Shown here: positions 12,778-28,806 of the stretch, in pieces
How the letters are laid out: every line of letters starts with the position of its first letter
Numbering within the stretch: the stretch's first letter is position 1
NCBI GenBank assembly: GCA_964291625.2
Contig: OZ220089.1
Span: 3,680,001-3,744,000 of the forward strand
DNA from: Candidatus Latescibacterota bacterium
GTDB taxonomy: Bacteria; Latescibacterota; UBA2968; UBA8231
Length of the DNA stretch: 64,000 nucleotides
Direction: 5' to 3'
Notes under the pieces: generated by a model
The model's database searches: none
The model's input: the letters and a program-made list of their open reading frames with translations, nothing else
What the model was told of the DNA's origin: nothing
Program-made: the position numbers and the translations under genes

Positions 12778-13539
12778 TCAGATGCGCCCGGGGATCGAGC
12801 GGCCCCGGGCGAGGATGGCGTCGCTGCGGCCCTGGCCGGTGAAGCGGCAATGGGCGCTGACGTAGTGGGTGGCGTATCCCCAGCGGCGCAGGCCGGTGGT
12901 GTTCGGACGGCTGCTGTGCAGGATGTGGCCGTGGTGGAAGCTGCAGTCGCCGGCGGCCAGCTCCACCGGCCGTTCCTCCGGCAGCTCGCCGGCCAGGGAA
13001 CGGCGCTCGAGCTCCCGCCAGCGCTCCTGCTCGATCCAGCCGTGGCGGTGGCTGCCCGGCAGCATCCACAGACAGCCGTTGGGGATGGTGGCCTCGTCCA
13101 GCGCCGCCCAGCAGGTGACCATGCGGTCGGGCGGGTCCACGTGGAAGCCGAGGGGCTGGTCCTGGTGGTAGGCCTGCCGCGAGCCGATGCGGGGCGGCTT
13201 CATGAACAGCTGGTCCTGGTAGAGCTTGATGTCGGGCCCGAGGAGGGACTCCACGCAGTCGAGGATGCGGGGGTTCAGGGCGTGGGTGCGGAAGACGCCG
13301 TCCACGAAGGCGAGGTGGCTCATCTTCCTCAGGGCGTTGGCCCGGTCGCCGGCCTCGGCCTCGCCGGCGGCCACCGCGGGCTCGACCTGGAGCTGGGTGG
13401 GATCGACGTGGGCCGCCTCCCCCCGCGACACCCGCTCGGCGCGGGCCTTCATGACTTCCACGTCCGCCGGGCCGAGCAGTCCCCGCACGATGAGGAACCC
13501 GTCCTCCCGGAAGCTCTCGACCTGACTCTCCGTCAGCAT
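12778..13539 (-). CDS. PhyH family dioxygenase
   Basis: FREDGFL, FMKPP, YHQD, NGCLWMLPGSH, LHSS.PN...R. Confidence 0.9.
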   Translation of the reverse strand: MLTESQVESFREDGFLIVRGLLGPADVEVMKARAERVSRGEAAHVDPTQLQVEPAVAAGEAEAGDRANALRKMSHLAFVDGVFRTHALNPRILDCVESLLGPDIKLYQDQLFMKPPRIGSRQAYHQDQPLGFHVDPPDRMVTCWAALDEATIPNGCLWMLPGSHRHGWIEQERWRELERRSLAGELPEERPVELAAGDCSFHHGHILHSSRPNTTGLRRWGYATHYVSAHCRFTGQGRSDAILARGRSIPGRI

Positions 13540-13595
13540 GACTCTCTCCCCGTGGCGGCCGGGAAGATAGCCCCGGACCGCCGGAGGTCCATCCC

Positions 13596-14747
13596 ATGAC
13601 CGTTCCGGACTTCGAGCGCGTGCGGGACGACTTCCCGCGGGCGCGCACCGCCGCCTACTTCGACAACGCCTCCTCCCACCCCATCAGCGTCCGCACGTCC
13701 GCGGCCCTGCACCGCTACGTGGACTGGGTCGCTCACAACGTGGGCGATCCCTGGTGGCCGGACTGGGCGCCGCCCCGCGACGAGGCCCGCCGTCTCTTCG
13801 CCCGCCTGATCCACGCCGACCCGGCCGAGATCGCCTTCGCCCGCAGCACCGTGGAGGCCGAGAGCAACCTGCTCAACGGCATGGCCGATCACCTGGCCGG
13901 CGGCAACGTCGTCACCAACGACCTGGCCTTCTCCGCGTGCCTCTGCAACTACAAGGTGAGGGAGGCCGCCGGTCTGGAAGTGCGCATCGTGCGCAACCAC
14001 GACTGGCGCATCGACATGGACGCCATGGCCGCGGCCATCGACGCCGACACGCGCCTGGTCTCGGTCGCCCTCGTCTCCAACGTCAACGGCCTCCTCGCCG
14101 ACGTGCGAACCCTCAGCGAGCTGGCCCACGCCCGCGGCGCCTTCCTCTACGCCGACATCATGCAGGCCGCCGGCGCCGTGCCCATCGACGTGGGCGCCAT
14201 GGGCATCGACATGGCCGCGTGCTCGACCTTCAAGTGGCTCATGGGGGTGAAGGGCTTCGGCTTCCTCTACGTGCGGCGGGACCTGCAGCACTCGGTGGTC
14301 AAGGCGTCGCAGCCTTCCGGCTCGGTCCGCCTCAACTACCCGCCCTGGACGGATGGGGGTGACGGGCGGCCCGAAGTCAGCGTCATGACCCGGGACGATG
14401 CCACGGCCTGGGAGGTGAGCTATGCCTCCTACGAAGGCCTGATCGCCGCCCAGCAGAGCCTGCGCTACATCCTCGACCTCGGGGTGGAGAACATCCGCGG
14501 CCATGTGCGCAGTCTCACCGACCGCCTGCAGGAGGAACTGCCTGCCAGGGGCTATCGGCCGATGACGCCGCGAGGCAACGAGAGCCCCATCCTCGCCTTC
14601 GCCGCGCCCGACCCCGAGGCGGCCGTGCGCCGCACCCGCGAGGCTGGCGTTCATGTGGCGATGCGCTTTGGTGACAAGCTGCGGCTGTCGCCCTCGGTCT
14701 ACAACAACCAGGAAGACGTGAGCCGCCTCATCGAGGCGTTGCCCTGA
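13596..14747 (+). CDS. Class V PLP-dependent aminotransferase (cysteine desulfurase/kynureninase-like)
   Basis: YFDNAS, DIMQAAG, STFKWLMG (PLP lysine), LRLSPSVYN. Confidence 0.85.
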   Translation: MTVPDFERVRDDFPRARTAAYFDNASSHPISVRTSAALHRYVDWVAHNVGDPWWPDWAPPRDEARRLFARLIHADPAEIAFARSTVEAESNLLNGMADHLAGGNVVTNDLAFSACLCNYKVREAAGLEVRIVRNHDWRIDMDAMAAAIDADTRLVSVALVSNVNGLLADVRTLSELAHARGAFLYADIMQAAGAVPIDVGAMGIDMAACSTFKWLMGVKGFGFLYVRRDLQHSVVKASQPSGSVRLNYPPWTDGGDGRPEVSVMTRDDATAWEVSYASYEGLIAAQQSLRYILDLGVENIRGHVRSLTDRLQEELPARGYRPMTPRGNESPILAFAAPDPEAAVRRTREAGVHVAMRFGDKLRLSPSVYNNQEDVSRLIEALP

Positions 14748-14756
14748 GCGGCCCTC

Positions 14757-14951
14757 TCAGGGACTTCCCTCTTCGACTTCTTCCTGCTTCTCGGCCAGTC
14801 CCACGGCGAGCAGGGCAAGGACGGGGAATACGAGTCCCAGAACGAACCACTCGTCGCCGCTCCGGTTCTTCGTCCTGGCTACGAAGCGGGAGAAGAAGGC
14901 CGAGGCGAGCCAGAAGGCGATGGCTGGTGCCAGTCCCAGGTTGAGATCCAT
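14757..14951 (-). CDS. Small membrane protein (64 aa, two hydrophobic segments)
   Basis: GAGGAG RBS before the ATG at 14951. MDLNLGLAPAIAFWLASAFFSRFVARTKNRSGDEWFVLGLVFPVLALLAVGL..., with the common A..K.RS...WF.LG pattern. Confidence 0.7.
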   Translation of the reverse strand: MDLNLGLAPAIAFWLASAFFSRFVARTKNRSGDEWFVLGLVFPVLALLAVGLAEKQEEVEEGSP

Positions 14952-15070
14952 TTGCTCCTCTCCGGGGTCGGAGGTTTGCGGTCCACGACGGGCGTCCGCC
15001 GGCGGACACTGGTGTGCGGCAACGGTCACCCTCGGCGCCCGCCCCAGGCAGGCGCTCGGGAGAGCCGGGT

Positions 15071-15087
15071 CTGGCATGGAGGTTGCA
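15071..15087 (+). promoter_or_regulatory. Sigma54 (RpoN) -24/-12 promoter
   Basis: CTGGCATGGAGGTTGCA = TGGCAY-N5-TTGCA with exact GG-N10-GC spacing, about 45 nt before a small ORF. Confidence 0.75.
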
Positions 15088-15130
15088 ATGGTGAGGGCGA
15101 CGACTCACCACCTTCCGCAAGGAGGACATC

Positions 15131-15217
15131 ATGCAGACCTTCCGCCGCGCCGCCGAGATCGCAGCTCCCGTCGCCATCGTCGTGTGCTTCCTCGGCCCGT
15201 TCTTTGTCGGCGCCTGA
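15131..15217 (+). CDS. Small hydrophobic peptide A (28 aa) MQTFRRAAEIAAPVAIVVCFLGPFFVGA
   Basis: AAGGAGG RBS, sigma54 promoter upstream, paralog at 28495, hairpin downstream. Confidence 0.7.
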   Translation: MQTFRRAAEIAAPVAIVVCFLGPFFVGA

Positions 15218-15224
15218 TCAGCGA

Positions 15225-15258
15225 GGGGCTCGGCAACGCTCAGGCGGGGCCGAGCCCC
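15225..15258. terminator. Hairpin between the convergent peptide A gene and HD gene
   Basis: GGGGCTCGGC ... GCCGAGCCCC 10-bp inverted repeat. No U-tract. Confidence 0.4.
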
Positions 15259-15815
15259 AGTCGCCCCTCCTCGGGGCGCAGGGCCTGGATGACGAAGTCG
15301 ATGTGCTCGTCCAGGTCCACCCCGAACTCCTCGGCCCCCTGGCGGATCTCGCCGCGGTCGACGGCGCGGGCGAAGCCCCGGTCCTTGAGCTTCTTCCGCA
15401 CGCTGCGCACGCCCAGGTCGGCGAGGCTCTTCGACGGCCGCACGAGGGCGCAGGCCACGAGAAAGCCGCACAGCTCGTCCACGGCGAAGAGGGCCTTGGC
15501 CACGGGCGTGTCCCGCGGCACACCGCTGTACGTGGCGTGTCCGAGGATGGCCCGGCACAGGGGCTCGGGGTAGCCGCGCTCGCGCAGCAGGGCCACGCCG
15601 AAGGCCGGGTGCCCGTCGGTGGGGGAGCGCGCCTCGTTGGGGTGGGACTCGTAGTCGAAGTCGTGGAGCAGTCCCACGGTGGCCCAGGCCTCCTCGTCCT
15701 CCCCGAGGCGGCGGGCGCAGGCGCGCATGGCGGCCTCCACGGCGTACATGTGCCGGCGCAGGGGCTCCGACGCCGTGTGCTCGTGCATCAGGGCCAGGGC
15801 TTCGTCCCGGGTCAC
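15240..15815 (-). CDS. HDIG/HD domain metal-dependent phosphohydrolase
   Basis: GTG start overlapping the msrAB stop. [36 protein letters not shown]. Confidence 0.88.
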
Positions 15816-16870
15816 GGGCTCTCTCCCGCCTGCGCCTGGGCCTCGAAGCGGGCGAGGTACTCGCCGTAGCCGGCCTCCTCCATCTCCTCCCGCGGCACGA
15901 AGCGCAGGGCCGCCGAGTTGATGCAGTAGCGCAGCCCCGTGGGCTCGGGTCCGTCGTCGAAGAGGTGGCCCAGGTGCGAGTCGCCGTGCTTGCTGCGCAC
16001 CTCGGTGCGCGGGTAGATCAGCTTGAAGTCCCTCTTCTCGACGATGTTCTCCGCCACCAGGGGGCGCGTGAAGCTCGGCCACCCGGTGCCCGAGACGTAC
16101 TTGTCGACGGAGAGGAAGAGGGGCTCGCCCGAGACGATGTCCACGTAGATCCCCTCCTTCTTGTTGTCCCAGTATTCGTTGCGGAAGGGCGGCTCGGTGC
16201 CCTCCTCCTGGGTGACCTCGTACTGGAGGCGGGTCAGGCGGCTGCGCAGCTCCTTCTCCGGCGGCTTGAGGTAACGCGTCTCGGTCCCGCCGCCGCCGCC
16301 CCAGTGGGCGCGGATGAACTGGTCGCGGCCGGAGCCGGAGCGGTAGCGCTTGTAGTGGGCCGGGTCCTTGCGGTAGAAGTCCTGGTGGTACTCCTCGGCC
16401 GGGTAGAACACGTCGGCGTCGCGCACCGGCGTGACGATGGGGTCCTCGAAGCGGCCCGAGGCCGCCAGGTCCGCCTTCGAGGCCTCGGCCAGCCGCCGCT
16501 GCTCCTCGTCGTGGACGAAGATCGCCGAGGTGTACTGATACCCGCGGTCGACGAAGGAGCCGCCGGCGTCGGTGGGGTCGAACTGCATCCAGTAGACCTC
16601 GAGGAGCCGCTCGTAGCTGATCGTCTCCGGGTCGAAGGTGACCTGCACCGCCTCCAGGTGCCCGGTCTTGCCCCCCGCGACCGCGCGGTACGTGGGGTTC
16701 ACCTCCGGACCGCCGATGTACCCGGAGATCACGGAGTGCACGCCCTCCAGCTTCTCGAAGGGCGGCTCCAGGCACCAGAAGCAGCCGCCGGCAAAGGTGG
16801 CCCGGGCCGCTTCCCCGGCGCCGGCGGCAGCCGGCAGCGCCGCCAGCAGGGCCGTGAAGATCCGTCTCAT
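15812..16870 (-). CDS. msrAB: Exported bifunctional peptide-methionine sulfoxide reductase MsrA-MsrB
   Basis: Signal peptide [18 protein letters not shown], MsrA GGCFWC and AEEYHQDF, Msr[22 protein letters not shown]. Confidence 0.93.
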
Positions 16871-16892
16871 CGTATCGCCTCCTGTCGTGGTG

Positions 16893-17801
16893 TCATCCCT
16901 TCGCCGACGCCCGCGCCGCGGCGGATGTTCCGGGGTGCGGGACGGTGTTGAGGTCGAAGGCGTTCCAGTAGTACTGGTAGTTGCTCGACTTCCAGCCGGC
17001 GTAGATCTCGTCCCAGCCCATGCGGTTGAAGTGCGGCAGCAGCGATCCCTCGGTGACCGGCTGCGAGCCTCCCTGGTAGCGGTAGTCCACGGAGAGGCGG
17101 ATGCGGTCGGGACTGCGGTTCGGCAGGGCCTTGTGCACGGCGTGGCTGTGAAAGAAGAGGGCATCGCCGATCTCGAAGTCCCCCGCCGCCCAGCGCAGTC
17201 CCTGTGCCTCCAGGGGCGCCGTGTCGATGCCGACCTTGCCGGCGCCGAGGGCCGGCTCCACCGGGTACAGCCCGCCCTTGTGCGATCCCGCGAGCACCGA
17301 CAGTCCGCCCAGGTCTTGCGGACAGGCGCCGAGGGGGATCCACGCGGTATACGTTTCCGGCGTTCCCCGGATATGGATGAAATCCTGGTGCGCCGGCGTC
17401 GTGTGGCTGGCGTTCTCCGGGAACATGATTCGGCCGATGTTCCGCGGATGGACGAGCGTCTCCTCGCCGAAGAGCCTGTCGCACATCTCCAGGATCGCCG
17501 GGTGGTGGGCGAAGGCATGGAACGACTCCAGGCGCTGGAACTCGTCCAGCACCGGCCAGTAGCCGTCGTCGCCCTCGACGAAGGGGCCGCCGGCGCGCAG
17601 GCCCTCCATCAGTCCCTCGCCGCCCCGGGTCCATCCGTGGCGGTGGCAGATCTCCAGGAAACCGCGGCGCAGGCCGAGGACGGAATCGGCGTCGATCAGG
17701 CCGCGGAAGAAGAGGTAGCCGTCCCGGCGCGCACGGTCCTGCAGCCGGTCCGGATGTTCCAGCAGATCGTTGGAGACGGCGAAGGGTTCAGCTCTTGCCA
17801 A
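16893..17801 (-). CDS. PhyH family dioxygenase
   Basis: TTG start with [40 protein letters not shown]...R.S.DYRYQ. Confidence 0.88.
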
Positions 17802-17826
17802 GGGATGCTCCTCGCTTGCGGGCGGC

Positions 17827-18846
17827 TCAGCCGAGGCGCCAGTGGATGCCCATCAGGCAGGTCGGCTCTCCCGGCTTGTCGATGGCGTAGTAGACGGTCA
17901 GGATGGAGCCGTCCGCCAGCTGTGCCGACGCCGGATACCCCAGGTCGGGGCTGGTGTCCGTGCACAGGACGATCTCCTCGCTCCAGGTCTCGCCTTCATC
18001 GGCGGTCACGCGCGCCCGTTGCCCGAAGGGCGGCACCCTGACGCCGTACACGAGGAGGATGCGGTTGTCCTCCTCCAGGCGAATCATGTGAGCGGGATAG
18101 CCGAGGATGCCGGTCTTGAAAGGTTCCGTCCAGGTGCGGCCGCCGTCGCGGCTCTCGGCCTGGAACATGTACTTCTCTTCCAGTATGGATGTGCCATAGC
18201 GGAACATCCCGATGAGCTTGCCGCTCTCCGTCTCGGCGAGATACGGTTCGCCCAGGCCGATGCCCTCGGGCTCGGGGACGGTGCCGATGACCTGCCACGA
18301 TCGGCCCTGGTCGGTCGACTCCTCGGCGGTCAGGCCATGCACGCCGTCGAAGGTGCCGCTGCCGAGGTAGAGCAGGCGGCCGTCGTCGAGTTCGACCGGT
18401 CCATGGGGAGCGGACCCCTTGTTCCTTACCGGTTGTTCCCAGGTGACCCCCGAATCCGTGGATCGCTGGGTCCAGTGGCCCATCCACCGCTCCCGCACTT
18501 CCGGGCTCAGCGTCGCGGCGTGGGCCTCGTACCGCTCGTCGTTCTCGAACTCCACCGATGTGAACCAGGTGGAGATCAGCGTGCCGTCGGAGGTCTCCAC
18601 CAGTCCGGCGTCGCGGTCGTCGAGGGGGGTGTTGCGGATGACGACGGGATCGCTCCAGGTGGCGCCCTCGTCGGAGCTGCGCACCAACTCCGTCTTGCCC
18701 CAGGGGCAGATGTGCCCGTCCCGGTCGCCCGAGAACACGACGATCAGCTCGCCGCCACGGGTGCGCACGATGGTCGGCCACCCGATGTAGCGGCCCGGCT
18801 CCTTGCAGAGGATCCGCCTGGACAGAATCTCGGCTGAGGGTGTCAT
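17827..18846 (-). CDS. BNR/Asp-box sialidase-like beta-propeller (GH33-like)
   Basis: Asp-box repeats SSDEGATW, STDSGVTW, STDQGRSW, SRDGGRTW, TADEGETW and DLGYP. Confidence 0.8.
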   Translation of the reverse strand: MTPSAEILSRRILCKEPGRYIGWPTIVRTRGGELIVVFSGDRDGHICPWGKTELVRSSDEGATWSDPVVIRNTPLDDRDAGLVETSDGTLISTWFTSVEFENDERYEAHAATLSPEVRERWMGHWTQRSTDSGVTWEQPVRNKGSAPHGPVELDDGRLLYLGSGTFDGVHGLTAEESTDQGRSWQVIGTVPEPEGIGLGEPYLAETESGKLIGMFRYGTSILEEKYMFQAESRDGGRTWTEPFKTGILGYPAHMIRLEEDNRILLVYGVRVPPFGQRARVTADEGETWSEEIVLCTDTSPDLGYPASAQLADGSILTVYYAIDKPGEPTCLMGIHWRLG

Positions 18847-18849
18847 CGG

Positions 18850-19809
18850 TCAGGTCCTGGATGCGGTCCGCCACCGCCAGCCCGCCTCCTTCTTCCCCGG
18901 AGGAAGGGCCACGTTGCTGGACCCCATGAACTGGATGGTCGTGCGCCGCTGCCGCTCGCTGCGCCAGGCGGTGGTCCCGTGCGCTACGCCGCCGAAGAAC
19001 AGGACATCGCCGGCCTTCAAGGGCGGTGGTCCTCGGGCAGGTCGTCCTGCATCTCCAGGGCGAAGTCGACGGCGCGGTTCGCCGCCGCCAGCCACTCCTC
19101 GTCCATGACGCCCCGCAGGACGAGGTAACCGCGCACGTCCCAGAACCACAACTCATCCGGGTCGGGCTGGCTGTTCTCGTCCAGATGGAAGGCCAAGGAC
19201 GGCGGCCGCTCTTCCACTGTCGCCACCCAGGTCCGTTCCCCGTCGGAGATGACCGTGCCCCCCCGTCCGGTGGCCCTCGTCCCGACAACCGCCCGCTGCT
19301 CCGGGGTCAGCTCCGTCACCCATTCCGGAGCTTCGATCTCGGGATAGCCGGCCGTCGGCCGCGCCCGCGAGTTGACGTACACGATCTCGATCACCCGTCC
19401 CGGCCGGCCGCGGACACCGTAGAGCGTGTTGGCGGCGCAGATGAGAGCATCCCCGGCTTCGAGCACGGGCTCCTCGGTCATGCCCAGGTCATCGGCGCCG
19501 GCGAGGAAAGCGGCCGGCGGCTCCGTCGCCCGGTTGTGGCTGCCCGGGACCAGCACGATACCCCCGTCTTGGGGCGTGGGCGCAAGAGCGAGGAACACCC
19601 TCACTCCCTTGCACTCCCGGGTATCGCCGTTGTTTGCATACCGCAGCCGCCTGCGGTCTTCCGGTGGACCCGCCGACAGGGGCACCGCGCCCTGCCCTCC
19701 GTCCGGGACCGGGGCCGGCGGCTGATCGATGACGAAGCCAGGCGGAGAGCGCCCCTGGCAGGTGGATGAAGCCGGCGATATCGAATCCGTAGTCCTGGTC
19801 TGCGTTCAC
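18850..19809 (-). pseudogene. Degraded two-domain PhyH-like dioxygenase
   Basis: Three frames: VNADQDYGFDIAGFIHLPGALSA | GFVIDQPP...GGIVLVPGSHN...WFWDVRGYLVLRGVM...DHRP | LKAGDVLFFGGVAHGTTAWRSERQRRT. Frameshifting deletions near 19740 and 19025. Confidence 0.75.
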
Positions 19810-19927
19810 CTGTTTCTCTCCTTCGCGGTCGTGCGTAAGCAAGGCGGCCGCCAGGGAGCTGTAAAACTCGATGACGCGCACGATGGTGCCGATTGCCCGA
19901 GACCCCGGGCCGGGATAACCTTCGCGC

Positions 19928-21139
19928 ATGACCAGCTCCGAAACCATCACCATCGTCGGCGGCGGCATCTGGGGCCTGAGCACCGCCTTCCACCTGGCCG
20001 AGCGCGGCGCGGGACCCGTGCGCGTCCTCGAGCGCAACGCGGAGGTCGCGGCGGAGACGACCCCCCGCGCCGCGGGACTGGTAGGCCAGGTGCGCAGCTC
20101 GGCGGCCATGTGCCGGGCGGTCCGCTACGCCCTCGACCTGCTCTCCGGGTTCGGCGAGCGGTCCGGGCACGACCCGGGCCTGCGGCGGCCGGGGAGTCTC
20201 CTCGCGGCCCTGACCCCGGAGCGGATGGCCGCCTACGAGGGCCTGATCGAGCGCGCCCGGGCCAGCGGGGTCGAGGCCGCCTTCCTCTCCCATGACGAGA
20301 TGGAGCGGCTCTGCCCGGGCCTGGACGTCGCCCGCCTCGAGGGCGGCTGCTACGTCACCGGCGACGGCTACGTCGACCCCGGCCGCTGCGCCCGCGCCTA
20401 TGCCGCCGCCGCCCGCGACCTGGGAGTCCGCATCGACTGCTCCGCCGAGGTGACGGGTCTCGATGTCGAGGGGGGCGCCGTGCGCGGCGTGCGCACCGCG
20501 GGCGAGACCATCGCCGCCGACCGGGTGGTCCTCACCGCCGGCCCCTGGAGCAGCCGCCTGCTGCGCCGCTTCGGCGTCGAGGAGTTGCCCCTGCAGACGA
20601 TCCGCCACCAGCGGGCCCGCACCGCCGCCGCCGGGATCTCCGCCGACCACCCCGTGGTCCGCGTCACCGAGGTGAGCTGCTACGTCCGCCCGGAGCGCGG
20701 CGGCTACCTCTACGGCTTCTTCGAGCCGGACCCGCACCTCGTCGATCTGGACGAGGGCTTCCGCACCTCGGACCTGGCCGAGCCGCGCGGTACCATCGCC
20801 GAGGCCGCGGACCGGCTGGCCCCACTCTTCCCGTCCCTGCCCGGGCTGGAGGTGGCCGAGTACTCCCAGGGGGTCACCTCCTTCGCGCCCGACGGCGGCT
20901 ACCTGCTCGGGCCGGTGCCGGCGGTGGAGGGGCTCTACGTGGCCTCGGCCTGCGCCGCCCTCGGCATCGCCGGGTCCGCCGCCGTGGGCCGCTGGCTCGC
21001 GGCCTGGGTGATCGACGGGGATCCGGGGGAGGACCTGGCGGAGTTCGGTCTCGGGCGTTTCGGCGAGCACGGCCGCGACCCCGAGTGGGTGCGCCGCGAG
21101 AGCCGCGGCTTCTACGCCACCTACTACAATGTCCGCTGA
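19928..21139 (+). CDS. FAD-dependent oxidoreductase (DAO / sarcosine-dimethylglycine oxidase family)
   Basis: IVGGGIWG, ETTPRAAG, DGYVDP, SFAPDG..LLGP. Confidence 0.85.
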   Translation: MTSSETITIVGGGIWGLSTAFHLAERGAGPVRVLERNAEVAAETTPRAAGLVGQVRSSAAMCRAVRYALDLLSGFGERSGHDPGLRRPGSLLAALTPERMAAYEGLIERARASGVEAAFLSHDEMERLCPGLDVARLEGGCYVTGDGYVDPGRCARAYAAAARDLGVRIDCSAEVTGLDVEGGAVRGVRTAGETIAADRVVLTAGPWSSRLLRRFGVEELPLQTIRHQRARTAAAGISADHPVVRVTEVSCYVRPERGGYLYGFFEPDPHLVDLDEGFRTSDLAEPRGTIAEAADRLAPLFPSLPGLEVAEYSQGVTSFAPDGGYLLGPVPAVEGLYVASACAALGIAGSAAVGRWLAAWVIDGDPGEDLAEFGLGRFGEHGRDPEWVRRESRGFYATYYNVR

Positions 21140-21153
21140 CAGGAGGTGACGCG

Positions 21154-21870
21154 ATGGCAGACCTGAGCGGCCGGGTGGCCGTGGTCGTGGGCAGCAGCTC
21201 GGGGATGGGGCAGGCGGCGGCGCGGGTCTATGCGGAAGCAGGGGCGAAGCTGGTGCTGGCGGCGCGCAGCGAGGGAGCACTGGAGGCGCTGGCCGCCGAG
21301 ATCGGCGACGGCGCCCTGGCCTGTCCCACCGACGTGACCGATCCGGCCCGGGTGGAGAACCTCGTCGGCACCGCCCTCGACGCCTTCGGCCGCATCGACG
21401 TGCTCCTCTACGCCACGGGGACCAACATTCCGGAGCGCAGCCTCCAGGTGCTCTCCCGCGAGACCTGGAACGACATGATCGCCACCAACCTGACCGGCGC
21501 CTTCCACTGCACGAAGGCGGTGCTGCCGGCCATGCGGGCCCAGGGCTCGGGCCTGATCATCTACCTCTCCTCCGGCTGCGTGCAGAAGCCCGACGTCTCG
21601 GGCGTCGCCTACCAGGCCACCAAGTGCGGGATCTCCGGCCTGGCCCACGGGACCTTCGAGGAGGAGCGCGAGAACGGGATCCGCACCACCGTGATCTTCC
21701 CCGGCCTGTGCGACACCCCCCTGGTCCTGCGGCGGCCGACGCCGACACCGCCCGAGGTGATGGCGAAAGCCCTGCAGCCCGAGGACGTGGCCGACGCCTG
21801 CCTGTACGTGGCCGCCACGCCCGGCCGGGCGCGGGTGCCCGAGCTGGTGCTCCTGCCCGCGGGACTGTAG
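21154..21870 (+). CDS. Short-chain dehydrogenase/reductase
   Basis: AGGAGG RBS, GSSSGMG, YQATK catalytic motif. Confidence 0.9.
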   Translation: MADLSGRVAVVVGSSSGMGQAAARVYAEAGAKLVLAARSEGALEALAAEIGDGALACPTDVTDPARVENLVGTALDAFGRIDVLLYATGTNIPERSLQVLSRETWNDMIATNLTGAFHCTKAVLPAMRAQGSGLIIYLSSGCVQKPDVSGVAYQATKCGISGLAHGTFEEERENGIRTTVIFPGLCDTPLVLRRPTPTPPEVMAKALQPEDVADACLYVAATPGRARVPELVLLPAGL

Positions 21871-21883
21871 CTCCCCGGGCCTC

Positions 21884-22912
21884 TCAGGGGTCCCCGGGCG
21901 TCACCTTCTCCAGATAATCCACCAGGCGCCGGCGCGCCGGGCTGTCCCCGTGGATCTCGAGCCCCACTTGCGCCCAGGTCAGGGGGGTGGTCCCGTGCTC
22001 GTCGTCCACCGCCGCCGGGTCGGCCCCGGACTCCACGAGGAGTCGCGCCAGGCCGGCCGTGGCGCACAGGTGCAGCGGCGTCTGGCCCATGTCGGCGCGG
22101 GCGTTGGCGTCGGCGCCGCGCCGGATGAGGACCGCCGCCAGGGCGCCGTGTCCGCCGTGGACGGCGGCGTGCAGGGGCGTCCCCACAACCCGGTTGACAC
22201 CGATCCGGCCGCGGAAGGCGAGGGCCGCGGGATCGGCGTCGACGCGGCGCAGCAGGCGCTCGGTCCAGCCGAGGGCGGCCAGGTGGCAGGGGTCGGGGCA
22301 GGCGCCGCGCTCGACCAGCAGGGCGGCCACCGACCGGCCCCGGGGACCGCGGCCGAGGGCGGCGTCCAGGGGCGTGGCGCCCCGGGGATCGACGCTCTCC
22401 GGGGAGGCGTCGCCCTTCAGAAGGAGCCCGGCCACGGCGGGGGTGGCCGCATGGTGCAGGGGCGGCGCCTCGTCCAGGGCGGGCGCCGAGGCCAGGGCGG
22501 GGTCCTCCTCCAGGAGCCGCGCCACGGCGGCGGCATCGCCGAGCAGGGCGGCGGAGGCGATGTCGAGGCGGGCGCCGCGCGCCAGCAGCAACTCCGCCAC
22601 TTGGTGGTGGCCCCAGTGGGCGGCCAGCTGCAGGGGGCTCCAGCCGTAGCCCCCGAGGCCGCCCTCGACGTCGGCGCCGCGATCCAGCAGCAGCCGGGCG
22701 ATCTTCGGCCGCCCGCGCTCCGCGGCGAGTTGCAGGGGGGAGGGGCGGCCCCCCCACCGGGGGTGGGGCCCCGGCTCGTCGACGGCTCCCTCATCCAGGT
22801 CGAGGGCCGCGGCCACGGCGGCCGGGTCGCCGCGCCAGACGGCTTCGCCCAGCCGGCGGCCGGCGGTCCTGCGCCGCTGGCCGGAGTCACGGGGAGGCTC
22901 GGAAGGAGGCAT
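21884..22912 (-). CDS. Ankyrin repeat protein
   Basis: SPLQLAA, PPLHHAA, TPLDAA, TPLHAA, GQTPLH, TTPLTWA repeats. Confidence 0.88.
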   Translation of the reverse strand: MPPSEPPRDSGQRRRTAGRRLGEAVWRGDPAAVAAALDLDEGAVDEPGPHPRWGGRPSPLQLAAERGRPKIARLLLDRGADVEGGLGGYGWSPLQLAAHWGHHQVAELLLARGARLDIASAALLGDAAAVARLLEEDPALASAPALDEAPPLHHAATPAVAGLLLKGDASPESVDPRGATPLDAALGRGPRGRSVAALLVERGACPDPCHLAALGWTERLLRRVDADPAALAFRGRIGVNRVVGTPLHAAVHGGHGALAAVLIRRGADANARADMGQTPLHLCATAGLARLLVESGADPAAVDDEHGTTPLTWAQVGLEIHGDSPARRRLVDYLEKVTPGDP

Positions 22913-23028
22913 GAGAATCTCGACGGGGACACCGGGAGCATCGCTTCGGGGGCCGCAATCTACCGGCGCGCCTCGAACAGCGGCAAAACCGCCTTGCCGT
23001 GATCTCTCCCTTCGGCGACTATCGAGCC

Positions 23029-23559
23029 ATGGCCCGCCCGGCTCAACCGCTCTGGCGCAACCTCGCCTGGCCCTTGCTCGACACCAGCGTGCACCCCCTG
23101 CGCTACGTCCTGCGCGCCTGGCCCCTGGCCATGGTGCCGACCCTTGCCATCGCCCTGGTCCTGTCGACCCTGTTCCAGTTGTTCGGCCTCGACCTCTTCC
23201 TCGGAGAGGACCCCATGGCGCCCCTGAAGTCGACGCCGAAGTGGGTGTTCCTGCTGACGGTCGTCCTCTTCGCCCCTCTCTCCGAGACCCTGCTCATGGC
23301 GCCGATGCTGGCCGTGCTCATGCGCCTGTGGGGCGGGCGCCGGCTTCCCGCCGCCCTGTCCTCGGCGGCGGTGTGGGCCTTCCTGCACTCCCTCAGCGCC
23401 CTGCTCTGGGGAGTGTGCATCTTCTGGACCTTCCTGGTGTTCTCCATCGCCTGGCTGGCCTGGAGGCCCCGCTCCTTCGGCCACGCCTTCTTCGTCACCG
23501 CCGGGATCCACGCCCTCCAGAACGGCGCCGCAGGCGTGTGGGTGATGCTGGCCTTGTAG
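23029..23559 (+). CDS. CPBP/CAAX family intramembrane protease-like protein
   Basis: Multiple TM segments, APLSETL, WAFLH, GIHALQN. Confidence 0.75.
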   Translation: MARPAQPLWRNLAWPLLDTSVHPLRYVLRAWPLAMVPTLAIALVLSTLFQLFGLDLFLGEDPMAPLKSTPKWVFLLTVVLFAPLSETLLMAPMLAVLMRLWGGRRLPAALSSAAVWAFLHSLSALLWGVCIFWTFLVFSIAWLAWRPRSFGHAFFVTAGIHALQNGAAGVWVMLAL

Positions 23560-23650
23560 GCAGGGCGCGGATGGCCCCTTTGTGTCCCTCCGCGGATTTG
23601 ACTACACTCAAGCCGACCGGACGAAACTGGAGCATCCTCCGGACACCATG

Positions 23651-23691
23651 AAGGGCAGCCCGTGCACGAGGATGGGCTGCCCTTTCTTTTT
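23651..23691 (+). terminator. Intrinsic terminator upstream of the TonB receptor gene
   Basis: AAGGGCAGCCCGT-loop-ATGGGCTGCCCTT followed by TCTTTTT. Confidence 0.75.
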
Positions 23692-23763
23692 CGGCTCCGG
23701 AGGGCCCCCGGCCAACGCTGGCCCGGGGCGACTGCTTCAGCCCTCGAGAGGGGAGTCAACCCT

Positions 23764-26700
23764 ATGTGCATCAAGAAGAATTCGAGCATTGCCATGTTGG
23801 CGGCCGCAGTCCTGCTGTGGGGGGGACCAGCCGGCGCCCAGGGGACCGGCGGCCTCTCGGTCACCGTCGTCGACGCCGGCGGAGAGGCTTTGCCCTCGGC
23901 CCTGGTCTTCATCGAGGCCATCGATGTCGGCGGGTTCTCCGACGAGGAAGGTTGGTTGACCCTTGACAAGGTGCCCGCCGGCGAGCACCTCGTCGCCGTC
24001 GAGCTGATCGGCTATGAAAGCACCACCACCACCGTGATGGTTGTCGCCGGAGAGACCGCGACGGTCGAAGTGGAGCTGGCCGCCAGCGCGGTCCAGTTGG
24101 AGGAAGTGGTGGTGACCGGCACCGCCATCAAGGACTCCCACATCAGCTCGACCTACGCCGTCGCCGTGACCGGCCGGGAGGAGATGGCCGAGCAGGGATC
24201 GCCGCAGGCGGTCGACTTCTTCAAGAACCTGAGCGCCAGCCACGGCGTGATCGGCGAGCGCAGCAGCTGGTACAACGCCAACCAGGCCGCCACCCTCTCC
24301 GAGAGCATCGCCAACGTCAACCTGCGCGGCCTCGGGGCCTCGCGGACCCTGGTGCTGATCAACAGCCGCCGCCAGACCTACGTGCCGGCGCGTCTCATCG
24401 GCGGCCGCTTCGTCGACGTGAACGCCATCCCCTCCATCGCCCTCGACCGCGTCGAAGTGCTCAAGGAGGGGGCCGCCGCCATCTACGGGTCGGACGCGGT
24501 GGCCGGGGTCGCCAACTTCCTGACACGCTCCGACTTCACGGGTCTGGAAGTCTCGGCCTCGCACGAGTACCTGGCCGGCGCGGGCGACTCCGACGTGGGC
24601 GCCATCTGGGGCGGGCAGCTCGGCGGCGCCCATGCGGTCGTCGCCGCGGAGTGGCGGGGACGCAGCGAGCTGCCGTCCACCGAGAGGGACTATCTGCTGC
24701 AGCCGTGGCACGGCGGCGGCCAGCGCCTCGGATGGTCGAGCCTGGGGAACCCGGGCACCTTCGCCGTCGGCGCCCCGGCCCCCTGGACGGCCGCCATCCA
24801 CGCCCCCGACTGCGAGCAGTTCGGCGGCTTCCGGGAGTCCTGGACCTGCCGCTTCCGCTACCAGCAATACGAGAACCTGATCGAGGAGATGAGTCATCTC
24901 CGTCTGTTCTCGGAGATAAACGGTTCGCTGGCCGACGGCACGGAGTATCACTTCGAGGGCCTGCTGGCCCGGGCCGACATCCCCAACTGGTACACCACCC
25001 CTTCGTACCCTCCCTTCCCGCTGACGGACACGAGCATCATGGAGGTCGCCCCCGACCATCCGGGGCGGCAGGCCTTCTGCGAGGAGTACGGGGCGGCGGA
25101 CGGTGACCTGTACCACGCCGAGTGCCAGGCTGGCGAGAACTGGTATTTCAACGGCCGCCCCTTCGGCAACTCGGGTCCCGGACGCATCCTGGGCCGCGAC
25201 TCCAGCACGTTGCGCCTGGCGGCCTCGGCGAACCGCGACCTCTCCTTCGGTGGCCGCGAGACCCACTTCGACCTGGGCCTCTCCTGGTCCCGCACCGAGG
25301 GCAACTACAACCTGCCGGGCGTGTACATCGAGCGGCTCTTCCTCGGCTTCCGCGGTTTCGGGGGACCCGACTGCGGCGTCGGCGTGGAGGCGGACAACAC
25401 CTCCCTGGCGGGGATGCGGCTCGGTCCGCTCAACGGCCAGGTGGCCGGTCAGGGCGGCTGCCAGTACTACAACCCCTTCGGCAATGCCATCGAGTTCACG
25501 GACCAGCACGGCTCGAGCTATGCGGACCGGGCAAACCCGAACCCCCGTTACCGCGCCGACCTTGCCAACAGCCCCGAACTGCGGAATTGGCTGGCAGATA
25601 ACGAAGTCGATCTGCAGAGCACGGCGGACATGCTGGTTGCCGATGCCACGCTGACCGGAACCTGGATCGAGGACGTGGCCAGCTACGCGACGGGGTACCA
25701 GTTCCGCCTGCTCAATGCCAGCGGCGATCCCAACGACGCGGGCGACGTGACCATCAACCCCTGCCCGGTCGTGGGCGATACGAACTGCTCGGCCGAGGAC
25801 CGGTTCGGTCCCTATGCCTTCACCAACGTGAACAATCCCTATGACGTATCGCAGACTGTGCACCGTCTCTTTGCCGAGATCCCCCTGAGCCTGGGGTCGC
25901 GCTTCGACACCCAGCTCGCCGCCAACTACGAGTTCCACGACGTGGCGAGCAGCTTCGATCCCAAGCTCGGCTGGCGCTATCAGATCGCCGAGTCGTCGAC
26001 CCAATCGCTCTTTCTACGCGGCTCGGTGCAGACGACGTTCCGCACGCCGTCGCTGGACGACGTGAACACGAGCCCGCTGTCGACGCTCGAGTGGATCAAC
26101 GAGACGGGCGCCTATCAGACGGTGGACCGGATCGGCAGCAAGGACCTCAAACCCGAGCGGGCCTTCACCTACAATGCGGGCCTCGTCCTGGCCACGGAGG
26201 CCGGCCTCGATGTGACGTTCGACTACTGGAGCTACGACTTCAGCGATGTCATCGGCTCCATGCCGCACGGAGCGATCACCGCCCTGTATGATGAGAACAA
26301 CGAGGCCCTGAAGCAGTTCATCGTCTGCCCCGACGGGATCGGCACCGGCACCTGCGAGGCCTCGGCGCTCGAGCGGGTGCAGGTCGACATCGTCAACTGG
26401 CCGGGGGTGAAGACCTCGGGGATCGATTTGCATCTGGGCGGGCGCACTGATACCGGAGCCGCGGAATTCTCGTTCGGCTTGGACGCTACATACACGCTGG
26501 AGTACCGGGCGAAGGCCCTGATGCTCGGCAACTTGGTGCTGCAAGAGGAGGCAAACGCGGCCGGTTACCTGAATTTCGGCAATCCCATTGCCACCTCGCT
26601 GCCGAGATTGAAGGGCCGGGTTTCGACGGGATATGCTTGGAAAGCCTACCGCTTGGTTAGCTTCCTAAACTACATCTCGTCCTACGACGACCGGGGGTCG

Positions 26701-26937
26701 TGGATCTCTGGGACAGACAAAATCAGAGAGGAATTCGGTACTATCGATCCGTATACCACTTGGGACGTTAGCTTCCTGTGGAGCCTGCCCCGGGGCGCCA
26801 ACCTGGTGCTCTCCGGGATGAACCTGCTCGACAAACGGCCGCCCCTGGTCAATATCGAGCAGGCGTACGACGGCTTCACCCACGATCCCAAGGGCCGGCG
26901 GATCAAGCTGGCCGTCACCTGGGGACTGGGCGGCTGA
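23764..26937 (+). CDS. TonB-dependent receptor with N-terminal carboxypeptidase-regulatory-like domain
   Basis: GGGGAG RBS, signal peptide, LEEVVVTG TonB box, NLRGLGASRTLVLIN, RVEVLKEGAAAIYGSDAVAGVANF plug, LKPERA. Confidence 0.92.
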   Translation: MCIKKNSSIAMLAAAVLLWGGPAGAQGTGGLSVTVVDAGGEALPSALVFIEAIDVGGFSDEEGWLTLDKVPAGEHLVAVELIGYESTTTTVMVVAGETATVEVELAASAVQLEEVVVTGTAIKDSHISSTYAVAVTGREEMAEQGSPQAVDFFKNLSASHGVIGERSSWYNANQAATLSESIANVNLRGLGASRTLVLINSRRQTYVPARLIGGRFVDVNAIPSIALDRVEVLKEGAAAIYGSDAVAGVANFLTRSDFTGLEVSASHEYLAGAGDSDVGAIWGGQLGGAHAVVAAEWRGRSELPSTERDYLLQPWHGGGQRLGWSSLGNPGTFAVGAPAPWTAAIHAPDCEQFGGFRESWTCRFRYQQYENLIEEMSHLRLFSEINGSLADGTEYHFEGLLARADIPNWYTTPSYPPFPLTDTSIMEVAPDHPGRQAFCEEYGAADGDLYHAECQAGENWYFNGRPFGNSGPGRILGRDSSTLRLAASANRDLSFGGRETHFDLGLSWSRTEGNYNLPGVYIERLFLGFRGFGGPDCGVGVEADNTSLAGMRLGPLNGQVAGQGGCQYYNPFGNAIEFTDQHGSSYADRANPNPRYRADLANSPELRNWLADNEVDLQSTADMLVADATLTGTWIEDVASYATGYQFRLLNASGDPNDAGDVTINPCPVVGDTNCSAEDRFGPYAFTNVNNPYDVSQTVHRLFAEIPLSLGSRFDTQLAANYEFHDVASSFDPKLGWRYQIAESSTQSLFLRGSVQTTFRTPSLDDVNTSPLSTLEWINETGAYQTVDRIGSKDLKPERAFTYNAGLVLATEAGLDVTFDYWSYDFSDVIGSMPHGAITALYDENNEALKQFIVCPDGIGTGTCEASALERVQVDIVNWPGVKTSGIDLHLGGRTDTGAAEFSFGLDATYTLEYRAKALMLGNLVLQEEANAAGYLNFGNPIATSLPRLKGRVSTGYAWKAYRLVSFLNYISSYDDRGSWISGTDKIREEFGTIDPYTTWDVSFLWSLPRGANLVLSGMNLLDKRPPLVNIEQAYDGFTHDPKGRRIKLAVTWGLGG

Positions 26938-26941
26938 CGAC

Positions 26942-28066
26942 ATGAGGAGCGGAAAGGCCAGGGACGGCGGGGTCGTCCTCGCCGCCCTGGCCGCCGCTTC
27001 CATCTGTCATGCCCACCCTGCAGGGGAACTGGATCCCGAGCCCATGAACGTCGCGGTCGACGTCAAGCCGCTGCAGCCCCACAAGGGGACCACCCTCGCC
27101 TCCTGCGTCCATCCCCTGATGGCCGCCGCCGGCCGGCCCGAGTGGTCGATGGCGCGTCTCCAGGGCGTCCTGGGCCACGCCTTCCAGTTCGCCATGGAGG
27201 AAGGGGGCGGCATGGTCTTCCACGACAACCTCGACTGGAGCCTGGCCGTGGGCCTGTTGCCGGAGCTGGCCCGGTTCCGCGTGTACGAAGCCAACGACAA
27301 GAGCGTCGATGTCGATTGGCCGGCGCTGAAGGCCGAGGCCCGGGATGCCGCCGTGGCCAGCCTGGAGCGGGGGATCCCGGTGCTGGTGTGGCAGCCCATG
27401 AGCCTGGAGCAGAAGGAGAGCGATCACCCCGCGCATCACGCCTACTGCTGGGGGCTCATCGTCGGCTACGACCCCGAAGGCGAGACCTACACCATCCGCC
27501 ACCCCTTCGTCGAAGTCGACTACATGGTGCGCTACGACGCCCTCGGCCCCGGGGATCCCGGCGGGTGGTTCAACGTCACCGTCTACGAGGGTCCCGCCGA
27601 GGCGGCCGAGCGGGCGACCCACCTCATGGCCCTCCGAAACGCCATCGCCTTCGCCGAGGGGACGCGCTTCGAGCAGGCCGGCCGGCCCCAGACCCGGCCC
27701 CAGGGCCTGGCCGCCTACGAGACCTGGAGCGCCGCCTTCGATTCCGCGGACGTGGTCAAGCAGCCCACGCGCCATCACGCCAAGATCCTGACCTGGCGGC
27801 GGGAGCTCGCCGCCGGGTACATGCGCGAGCTGACGGACCTGCTGCCGGAAGGGGCGGAACCGCTGGCAGCGGCCGCCGCCGACTACGACCGGGAGCACAA
27901 GGCCCTGGTGGCCCTGTCCGCCCTCGTCGACTCCACCCACCAGCGGGGCGAGTACACCGGCGACGAGCTGGCCGAGGCCCGCCGGCTGATCGCCGAGGCC
28001 CTGGAGGCGGACCGGGCGGCCGTGGGCCGGATCGAGGCGGCGCTGGCGATCCTGGACGGGTCGTAG
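26942..28066 (+). CDS. Exported hypothetical protein, possibly BtrH_N/C39-like papain fold
   Basis: Signal peptide, LERGIPVLVW, WGLIVGYD, GLAAYETW. Starts 4 nt after the TonB receptor stop. Confidence 0.6.
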   Translation: MRSGKARDGGVVLAALAAASICHAHPAGELDPEPMNVAVDVKPLQPHKGTTLASCVHPLMAAAGRPEWSMARLQGVLGHAFQFAMEEGGGMVFHDNLDWSLAVGLLPELARFRVYEANDKSVDVDWPALKAEARDAAVASLERGIPVLVWQPMSLEQKESDHPAHHAYCWGLIVGYDPEGETYTIRHPFVEVDYMVRYDALGPGDPGGWFNVTVYEGPAEAAERATHLMALRNAIAFAEGTRFEQAGRPQTRPQGLAAYETWSAAFDSADVVKQPTRHHAKILTWRRELAAGYMRELTDLLPEGAEPLAAAAADYDREHKALVALSALVDSTHQRGEYTGDELAEARRLIAEALEADRAAVGRIEAALAILDGS

Positions 28067-28085
28067 CGGCGCCGGTCCCGCGCGC

Positions 28086-28205
28086 TCAGGCCAGGCTCTC
28101 GAGCACCTGTCCAAGCCGCCTGAAGGCCATGGCGGCGGCCCAGCCGTAGCTCAGGACCACGGCGGCGGGCAGCACCAGGTGCTGAAACAGTTCCGTCCGT
28201 CCCAT
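28086..28205 (-). CDS. Small hydrophobic peptide C (39 aa) MGRTELFQHLVLPAAVVLSYGWAAAMAFRRLGQVLESLA
   Basis: GAGGAGG RBS and a consensus sigma54 promoter about 35 nt upstream. Confidence 0.65.
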   Translation of the reverse strand: MGRTELFQHLVLPAAVVLSYGWAAAMAFRRLGQVLESLA

Positions 28206-28240
28206 CGGTTCCCTCCTCTTCTGCGAGATGTCCGGCTCCG

Positions 28241-28257
28241 TGCAAGGCCCGTGCCAG
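28241..28257 (-). promoter_or_regulatory. Sigma54 -24/-12 promoter (minus strand)
   Basis: Reverse complement CTGGCACGGGCCTTGCA, a perfect TGGCACG-N4-TTGCA. Confidence 0.8.
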
Positions 28258-28313
28258 TCTCTGGGGGGCACCGATCTCCAGCGGCGCCGGACGCGGTCCT
28301 CCAGGACCCCGGA

Positions 28314-28373
28314 GACTGCAGGCCTGCAGTCGTCCCTTGGGCCAGGCACGAGGTGTTCGACAGCGAACACCTC
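28314..28373. promoter_or_regulatory. Two palindromes, candidate enhancer (bEBP) binding sites
   Basis: GACTGCAGGCCTGCAGTC (28314-28331) and GAGGTGTTCG-ACAG-CGAACACCTC (28350-28373, contains TGT-N10-ACA). Confidence 0.55.
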
Positions 28374-28432
28374 TGTCTCGAAACAGGTCACCAGCGAGGT
28401 CCATCTCGAGCCTGCCACCCAGGGGAACCGGC

Positions 28433-28449
28433 CTGGCACGGTGGTTGCA
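28433..28449 (+). promoter_or_regulatory. Sigma54 -24/-12 promoter (plus strand)
   Basis: CTGGCACGGTGGTTGCA, a perfect TGGCACG-N4-TTGCA. Confidence 0.8.
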
Positions 28450-28494
28450 AGAGCGAGGGCGTCAACTCACGACCCTTCGCCCGAGGAGGACGAC

Positions 28495-28605
28495 ATGAGG
28501 ACCCTTCGCATCGCCAGAGAGATCGCCGTTCCCGTGGCCATCGGTCTGTGCTTCGCCGGACTGTCGACCTTCGCCCACTACGCCACCGTCTCCCTCACCG
28601 TCTGA
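28495..28605 (+). CDS. Small hydrophobic peptide B (36 aa) MRTLRIAREIAVPVAIGLCFAGLSTFAHYATVSLTV
   Basis: GAGGAGG RBS, sigma54 promoter, 14/22 identical to peptide A over the N-terminus, GC hairpin just after the stop. Confidence 0.7.
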   Translation: MRTLRIAREIAVPVAIGLCFAGLSTFAHYATVSLTV

Positions 28606-28806
28606 GAGCGCGGCGGCTGACCGGACCGCCGCCTCTCCGGCCCGGTCGCACACCGGCCTTGGTCAAGGTCCACCTTTGCGGGTTCCTTGGGGTGGATCTC
28701 TCGACCAGCGCCATGCGACAGGGCCTCGCCTGGCCGGGCCGCTCTCCCGTCCGTGTGCCATCGGGCGGGGGGCGGCCCACTCCATTCGGCCCGGGAGCAT
28801 CAGTCC

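Follow-up and report, generated by a model that had tools for sequence, protein, structure and literature searches.

The window analyzed here, a stretch of 64,000 nt from Candidatus Latescibacterota bacterium (GCA_964291625.2, contig OZ220089.1), contains two short and similar segments in which a promoter-like sequence is followed by a leader and a very small ORF. The question raised by this locus is whether these segments are genes of a multicopy micro-peptide family placed at unrelated loci and controlled by sigma-54, as claimed in the original prediction, or whether the conserved unit is an RNA or a DNA repeat, and what such peptides could do. We suggest, with a probability of roughly 60%, that they encode inducible, membrane-resident micro-proteins belonging to an activator-specific sigma-54 regulon. 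Whole-genome counts refer to the genome G000 (5.9 Mb in 2 contigs, C1 and C2, with 69.5% G+C), called this genome below.

The cassette family and its loci

Cassette A (15072-15217) and cassette B (28434-28605) are homologous. When A was searched by blastn against the whole 5.9-Mb genome, B was the sole strong match (125 nt aligned, 75.2% identity, E 3.5e-17), with the runner-up at E 0.005, and by tblastn the peptides share 14 identical residues out of 22. The alignment of promoter, leader, ribosome-binding site and ORF claimed for these segments was recovered feature by feature where predicted, as were the 14 identical residues and the 14-bp palindrome upstream of promoter A, at a distance of 64 nt. 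Considering the promoters and ORFs, the identity in both searches and the excess of the promoter pattern over a reversed-sequence control (see below), the resemblance between A and B is far beyond chance. Their features are as follows:

14994-15007, no strand: palindrome GTCCGCCGGCGGAC (GTCCG-N4-CGGAC) of cassette A, candidate enhancer-binding-protein site (UAS), with 64 nt between it and the promoter TGG
15072-15087, plus strand: putative sigma-54 promoter A, TGGCAT-GGAGG-TTGCA, TGGCATGGAGGTTGCA (CTGGCATGGAGGTTGCAA spans 15071-15088), with GG at 15073-15074 and GC at 15085-15086
15088-15130, plus strand: leader A, with the Shine-Dalgarno AGGAGG at 15120-15125 and GAGGGCG-N3-ACTCAC near the expected start
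15131-15217, plus strand: ORF A, 28 aa, MQTFRRAAEIAAPVAIVVCFLGPFFVGA, the same peptide being found in 3 species
15225-15258, no strand: GC-rich hairpin without a T run, between ORF A and the convergent HD-domain gene
28434-28449, plus strand: putative sigma-54 promoter B, TGGCAC-GGTGG-TTGCA, TGGCACGGTGGTTGCA (CTGGCACGGTGGTTGCAA spans 28433-28450)
28450-28494, plus strand: leader B, with the Shine-Dalgarno GAGGAGGA at 28483-28490
28495-28605, plus strand: ORF B, 36 aa, MRTLRIAREIAVPVAIGLCFAGLSTFAHYATVSLTV, with an in-frame 12-nt deletion in G002

The hairpin is conserved in G002, G004 and G006 and is a likely terminator of cassette A. The leader motif GAGGGCG-N3-ACTCAC (15088-15112 and 28450-28474) lies around the expected transcript start and is common to A, B and 3 of the 5 copies of type C; an insertion parts it from the promoter in two C copies, and it shows no conserved structure. 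Between the aminotransferase gene and cassette A there is a 240-nt segment (14750-14989) present in this genome only, being absent at the equivalent place in G002, G004 and G006. An ORF on the minus strand (14757-14952) encodes a hydrophobic sequence of 65 aa, with its own ribosome site and no Pfam match.

Extending the search to the whole genome and to related genomes revealed further copies and orthologues. Cassette B matched C1:3370587-3370693 by blastn (E 5e-16), which belongs to a third cassette, C (C1:3370490-3370715), located outside the window; its gene encodes a 38-aa peptide with the promoter TGGCACGGCGATTGCG upstream. A fourth gene, D, was recovered by a peptide profile within the window and is divergent from B:

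28086-28205, minus strand: ORF D, 39 aa, MGRTELFQHLVLPAAVVLSYGWAAAMAFRRLGQVLESLA, a distant paralogue (E 1.7e-13 with a 21-row profile that already included type D rows)
28206-28240, minus strand: leader D, with the Shine-Dalgarno GAGGAGGG at 28211-28218
28241-28256, minus strand: putative sigma-54 promoter D, TGGCAC-GGGCC-TTGCA, TGGCACGGGCCTTGCA, forming an inverted repeat with promoter B
28355-28368, no strand: palindrome GTTCG-ACAG-CGAAC common to the divergent B and D, extended as GGTGTTCG..CGAACACC to 28352-28371

Of the four paralogues in the genome (A-D), three (A, B and D) are thus located in the window. By profile searches, five of the 10 genus genomes, each from a different species (G000, G002, G004, G006 and G007), carry types A-D, amounting to 17 cassettes, all intact, which bears out the claim of a multicopy family. 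In the other 161 of the 168 phylum genomes, these searches returned neither A-D cassettes nor the look-alikes that we call type E. The latter are peptides of 34 aa, one from this genus (L032, G001:C73, 1501-1602) and one from another genus (L033, G091:C27, 1498-1599), and could be distant relatives; they reached E 0.095 before their own kind joined the profile. Type E genes lie directly downstream of ankyrin-repeat protein genes and have no sigma-54 promoter. Weak DNA matches in G001, G003 and G005 fall within larger unrelated frames, hence they were discarded as chance.

Among 1.84 billion representative proteins searched exhaustively by HMM, 13 matched at E <=0.001, all of them members of this family and several carrying miscalled upstream starts. 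Scanning 185,579 species genomes for the B/C motif resulted in 6 loci from 4 assemblies, labelled as Gemmatimonadaceae bacterium or Candidatus Latescibacterota bacterium MAGs. In JGI metagenome contigs, the peptide pattern matched 126 stretches with no confirmed relative, and the promoter-leader DNA pattern matched 114, none of the 80 loci inspected having the full -24 element or an EIAxP peptide. No family of Pfam-A or NCBIfam was found for three of the peptides at E up to 10, and the best score in the protein Atlas was 0.81, below the useful range. The sequencing runs that contain the region are labelled sponge metagenome; near relatives of this organism turn up in sponge-labelled runs. At the level of listings and abstracts, nothing was found in the literature on sigma-54-driven multicopy micro-peptide genes. 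This is a new, lineage-restricted small-protein family, with types A-D confined to one genus of uncultured bacteria among the sampled phylum genomes, and its regulatory setting is unusual, not unprecedented.

The placement at unrelated loci also held. Cassette A is surrounded by genes for a class-V aminotransferase, PhyH dioxygenases and an HD-domain protein; B and D by those for a TonB-dependent receptor and a 1605-aa M6-peptidase/BNR protein (28687-33504); and C by those for a 545-aa protein without assigned family and a PhyH protein. Only the stretch from palindrome to frame matches for type A in G007 and for type D in G002 and G007, while the flanks do not. In G002, moreover, D is absent beside B and sits on another contig. 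The conservation of the cassette without its flanks and the relocation of D indicate that gain, loss or movement affects the cassette as a whole.

Two readings of the peptides depend on these neighbors. As short members of a paralogous set, they could be precursors of ribosomally made, post-translationally modified natural products (RiPPs), with PhyH-type dioxygenase genes at up to 2.5 kb from A and 0.5 kb from C. PhyH (phytanoyl-CoA dioxygenase) genes are, however, hugely expanded in this genome (123 matches at E <=1e-5, against 0 in 14 control genomes), which corresponds to about one per 48 kb, so a PhyH gene at these distances needs no explanation other than chance. No modifying enzyme, protease or transporter recurs at the A, B/D and C loci, and the peptides lack a division into leader and core, with conservation peaking at the N-terminus and the helix core. 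We give hardly any credence to this possibility.

Alternatively, B could be an upstream reading frame, or leader, that controls the following gene for the 1605-aa secreted protein. The DNA from the stop of ORF B to the likely start of this gene (28606-28722) is almost invariant in 3 species, and G002 has lost part of the hairpin that follows B. Against this, A and D are each followed by a convergent gene and are consequently monocistronic, and C is followed by an unrelated gene 450 nt later, so the family in general cannot be a leader. For B itself, such a role seems quite improbable.

Coding frame and selection

The frames of all 17 cassettes are intact, with lengths from 27 to 39 codons. Each of the four indels found within frames has a length divisible by three: A of G006 is 3 nt shorter and B of G002 12 nt shorter, A of G007 is 3 nt longer and the database relative P0005 12 nt longer. 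The leaders, unlike the frames, carry 1-nt indels. Variable sites are distributed as 32, 26 and 47 over codon positions 1, 2 and 3, and the pooled pN/pS, computed over pairs that are not independent, is 0.49 in the annotated frame versus 1.18 and 1.70 in the other frames. DNA-level searches in the 10 genus genomes recovered the same loci, with no further and no decayed copies.

Selection is clearer in some types than in others. Pairs of type A mostly have dN/dS of 0-0.5, with one at 0.76. The A copy of G007 differs from the other A copies by dS of 0.85-1.3, with dN/dS of 0.24-0.40 (0.26 against ORF A of this genome), and all pairs among the four orthologues of type D have dS of 0.37-0.67 and dN/dS of 0.15-0.50. 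In type D and in A of G007, therefore, there is real divergence with the peptide retained. For types B and C, pairwise dN/dS is near 1 (0.3-1.6) on few substitutions, so these types alone are indistinguishable from neutrality. By the pooled value, the purifying selection claimed for the family is moderate, and types B and C add little to this test.

These data bear on a further alternative, in which the unit would be untranslated, either a sigma-54-dependent small RNA or a dispersed regulatory DNA repeat, the open frame being incidental. The high conservation of the B and C DNA, third positions included, would agree with it, as would the leader motif, conserved across paralogues without explanation. 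A constraint on RNA behind the low dS of B and C was rejected, since their flanks are as conserved as the ORFs at the kilobase scale (83-95% identity between genomes). One of the 13 database relatives, P0011, could also point in this direction: it has an A-type peptide up to residue 25 and then continues in another frame for 139 aa. The run-on part is antisense to the neighboring gene and is a frameshift or an assembly error. No copy with a broken frame, which would favor an RNA or a repeat, was detected in the 10 genus genomes, P0011 being the sole shifted frame.

Searches for RNA structure gave no signal. Folding of the predicted transcripts resulted in z-scores from -1.3 to +1.6 relative to shuffles, and the consensus structure of 11 transcripts of types A, B and C reached -4.3 kcal/mol over 161 columns, with double changes in 2 of 17 pairs. 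Rfam showed no match at the cassettes. Its only match in the window is a cobalamin riboswitch elsewhere (RF00174, 47345-47558, minus strand, 95 bits). With all frames intact, every frame indel in frame, pN/pS below 1 in the annotated frame only, synonymous sites diverged while the peptide is retained (dS of about 0.4-1.3 in type D and in A of G007), and neither fold signal nor covariation, we regard an untranslated unit as very unlikely. The in-frame indels, the frame-specific substitutions, the Shine-Dalgarno sites and the lack of RNA structure support a coding function over RNA, as far as this can be read from DNA, in agreement with the claim that these are micro-peptides.

Putative sigma-54 promoters and the upstream palindrome

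The pattern TGGYAY-N5-TTGC, with its -24 GG and -12 GC elements, is present in all 17 A-D cassettes of the 5 genomes. From promoter to ATG there are 44-49 nt in A, 46-48 nt in B and 35-37 nt in D; in C, the distance is 45-46 nt in three copies and 93-94 nt in the two with a leader insertion of about 48 nt. A ribosome site of the GGAGG type is found in every one of the 17. The strict pattern occurs 25 times in the 5.9-Mb genome versus 9 in the reversed-sequence control. This genome has one rpoN (Sigma54_DBD, E 1e-61) and 19 strong activator genes (Sigma54_activat, E <1e-38).

The second shared element is the palindrome GTYCG-N4-CGRAC. It has 37 perfect occurrences in the 5.9 Mb, so that a 130-nt window would contain one with a chance of 0.0008. 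Of the 25 strict promoters, however, 5 are preceded by one at a distance of 64-98 nt (four palindromes in total, B and D having one in common), namely those of A, B, D, a gene for a 796-aa MacB_PCD/FtsX permease (C1:2223823) and a gene for a 70-aa helix-turn-helix (HTH) protein (C1:1137024); in the latter, palindrome and promoter are retained in G007. Under a loose pattern, the palindrome occurs in 14 of the 17 cassettes. Nine have it at -77 to -80, comprising all five A copies (-77 to -79), all three B copies and C of G007, while in D cassettes it lies at -70 to -152, and copy C of this genome has a degenerate version only. Both arms change together, being GTCCG/CGGAC in A, GTTCG/CGAAC in B and D, and GTTCA/TGAAC in B and D of G006, whereas the 4-nt spacer varies. 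Such symmetric changes around a variable spacer give it the look of a dimer-binding site.

Three of the four defining features of standard sigma-54 promoters were found: the -24 and -12 elements, rpoN together with activator genes, and a candidate upstream activator site (about 80-150 bp from the start), which corresponds to the palindrome 64-98 nt before the -24 element. By sequence, the cassette promoters can be assigned to this class. As a rare palindrome precedes A, B and D as well as the genes of the permease and the HTH protein, a single regulon specific to one activator is suggested. From these DNA motifs, the four peptide genes probably belong to a small regulon under the control of one activator. 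The sigma-54 regulon that had been proposed finds support in silico in the 17 promoters, the shared symmetric palindrome, and the presence of rpoN and the 19 activators.

The permease gene is the second of two adjacent MacB_PCD/FtsX genes (781 and 796 aa; locus L051, C1:2221000-2234000), and only this second gene (C1:2223823-2226213) bears the palindrome and promoter. On the other strand, 4-8 kb downstream of the permeases, there are genes for a stand-alone receiver protein and for an NtrC-type activator of 748 aa (C1:2231601-2233847); the activator lies 8 kb from the permease and nothing ties it to the palindrome. The link of the peptides to the permease is the shared DNA motif.

The 70-aa HTH protein was considered as a possible copy of the DNA-binding domain of an activator, and this was rejected, the best matches to activator C-termini having E >2. 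It belongs to a separate family with 7 paralogues, and only one of them carries the promoter and palindrome. The paralogues are located at C1:1137024 (minus strand), C1:1823487, C1:48096, C1:2065645, C1:1833549, C2:245642 and C2:713020. This family of about 70 aa is Fis-like, with the conserved ARMY..N..A..ALGI...SF.RLCR.YG.ETP, and another paralogue, not the one at C1:1137024, is directly upstream of pspA.

Sigma-54-like sites were also observed before genes for GroES/Cpn10, PspA/IM30 and an apparent small heat-shock protein (C1:4728345, C1:47683 and C1:3837961, all on the minus strand). Pfam confirmed the Cpn10 and PspA identities; the small heat-shock gene has no such confirmation. These sites suggest that sigma-54 may drive stress chaperones in this lineage.

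Of the words sampled from 19001-29000, 41% and 9% are present in two RNA-library runs labelled sponge metagenome. RNA contigs over 13001-31000 have low and roughly even depth, with little cover at the bin of cassette A, and such contigs give neither starts, strands nor levels of transcripts.

Peptide properties and comparison with known systems

The peptides begin with 1-4 basic residues, followed by a near-invariant E-I-A-x-P (Q-D/H-F/L-x-L-P in type D) and then by a hydrophobic run. The best 19-residue windows have a mean Kyte-Doolittle hydropathy of 1.4-2.3, and the N-flank has a net charge of 0 to +3. The hydrophobic moment is low (0.2-0.7), so the helices are uniformly hydrophobic, not amphipathic. 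AlphaFold2, run on type C with a 21-row alignment, returned one helix over residues 2-37 with a mean pLDDT of 91. These properties are those predicted for single-pass membrane micro-proteins with the N-terminus inside, and not for amphipathic lytic peptides. A complex prediction for the 796-aa permease with a C-type peptide scored 0.01, which counts neither way.

In the mechanism that we propose, each cassette would be a self-contained gene of about 230 bp for a small membrane protein. A bacterial enhancer-binding protein would bind GTYCG-N4-CGRAC, with the center about 95 bp upstream of the start site, and its activation would enable the opening of TGGCAC-N5-TTGCA by sigma-54 RNA polymerase. 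Translation of the short mRNA, with a leader of 26-41 nt (85-86 nt in two C copies) and a strong Shine-Dalgarno, would then yield a peptide of 27-39 residues. Given the basic N-terminus, the E-I-A-x-P and the single hydrophobic helix, insertion into the cytoplasmic membrane is expected, with the N-terminus inside. A, B, C and D would be switched on along with the MacB/FtsX-type permease and the 70-aa HTH protein. Since the peptide, permease and HTH genes bear the same palindrome and promoter, we read the peptides as putative modulators that reside in the membrane and are induced as part of a response concerning the envelope or transport.

A different role for the same molecules would be that of membrane-damaging effectors. 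They could be toxic to the cell itself, like type I toxins, and silenced by the tight sigma-54 promoter, or be exported as leaderless peptides against competitors or an animal host, with the co-regulated MacB/FtsX permease acting as exporter or protection; in the exported form they would have a bearing on host-microbe or microbe-microbe interaction. Their small size, hydrophobic helices and several paralogues, the lack of signal peptides, the gain, loss and relocation of cassettes as units, the palindrome and promoter shared with the permease gene and the sponge label of the runs are all consistent with this. On the other hand, no antisense RNA or nearby complementary element was found: within about 400 nt there is neither such an element nor a sigma-70-like antisense promoter, in a scan that does not cover the promoter types of this phylum. 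The leaders are short and unstructured with the Shine-Dalgarno exposed, the moment is low relative to the hydropathy, and no exporter or immunity gene adjoins any cassette. We consider effectors of this kind unlikely.

Type I toxins such as TisB, Ibs, Ldr, ZorO and Fst are described as small, hydrophobic, often multicopy on chromosomes, narrowly distributed and tightly repressed (PMC2887945, PMC8309996). The cassette peptides resemble them in being small and hydrophobic, with several copies and a narrow distribution. They differ in having no detected antisense or divergent RNA partner, in the short, unstructured leader with an exposed ribosome site, and in the activator-dependent sigma-54 promoter, whereas the promoters of the toxins are constitutive or SOS-controlled.

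Phenol-soluble modulins and leaderless bacteriocins form sets of helical paralogues of 20-50 residues, induced directly by a response regulator and handled by ABC transporters; they are amphipathic or cationic, and their genes lie beside export or immunity genes. The cassettes likewise encode a set of paralogous, leaderless, helical peptides, but these are uniformly hydrophobic and their genes stand alone. A bolder version, which we regard as improbable, is that a sponge-associated lineage has multiplied and relocated portable modules of activator site, sigma-54 promoter and micro-ORF into a signal-gated arsenal of membrane-active peptides, with export or tolerance through the co-regulated MacB/FtsX permease and with the host or rival microbes as targets. 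If true, this would parallel the phenol-soluble modulin system, in a Gram-negative bacterium and under sigma-54. Membership of the cassettes among type I toxins, modulins or bacteriocins, RiPPs or RNA families is not supported.

For the preferred reading as membrane-resident micro-proteins, the interest lies in how the genes can be found. Bacterial proteins with fewer than 50 residues are mostly missed by annotation, and 3 of the 4 genes of this genome have frames short enough for gene callers to miss or mis-start. A whole micro-protein regulon could be recognized here from DNA because each gene carries the same sigma-54 promoter and activator palindrome, and this example comes from an uncultured lineage with otherwise opaque signalling. 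The module of about 230 bp is also small enough to be synthesized and tested with candidate activators in a heterologous sigma-54 host.

Among known systems, the closest analogies to the peptides seem to be small membrane-protein modulators and the small phage-shock proteins. AcrZ, KdpF, MgtS, CydX and MgrB are small membrane-protein modulators of transporters and sensors, and AcrZ is co-regulated with an unlinked efflux pump. The cassette peptides resemble this type in having fewer than 50 residues, one transmembrane helix, here predicted, and no signal peptide, and they share promoter and palindrome with the unlinked MacB/FtsX permease gene. They are, however, non-homologous, controlled by sigma-54 and present as four paralogues, and their link to the permease would be one of co-regulation, suggested by the shared motif. 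In Escherichia coli, the phage-shock genes depend on sigma-54 and PspF and include the small membrane proteins PspB, PspC, PspD and PspG. The likeness covers membrane proteins, -24/-12 promoters, an activator bound upstream and an inducible envelope response, and a PspA/IM30 gene preceded by a sigma-54-like site is present in this genome too. That site lacks GTYCG-N4-CGRAC, which implies an activator different from the one suggested for the cassettes. Compared with the phage-shock proteins, the cassette peptides have fewer residues, exist in several copies with a promoter for each, and bear no sequence relationship to them.
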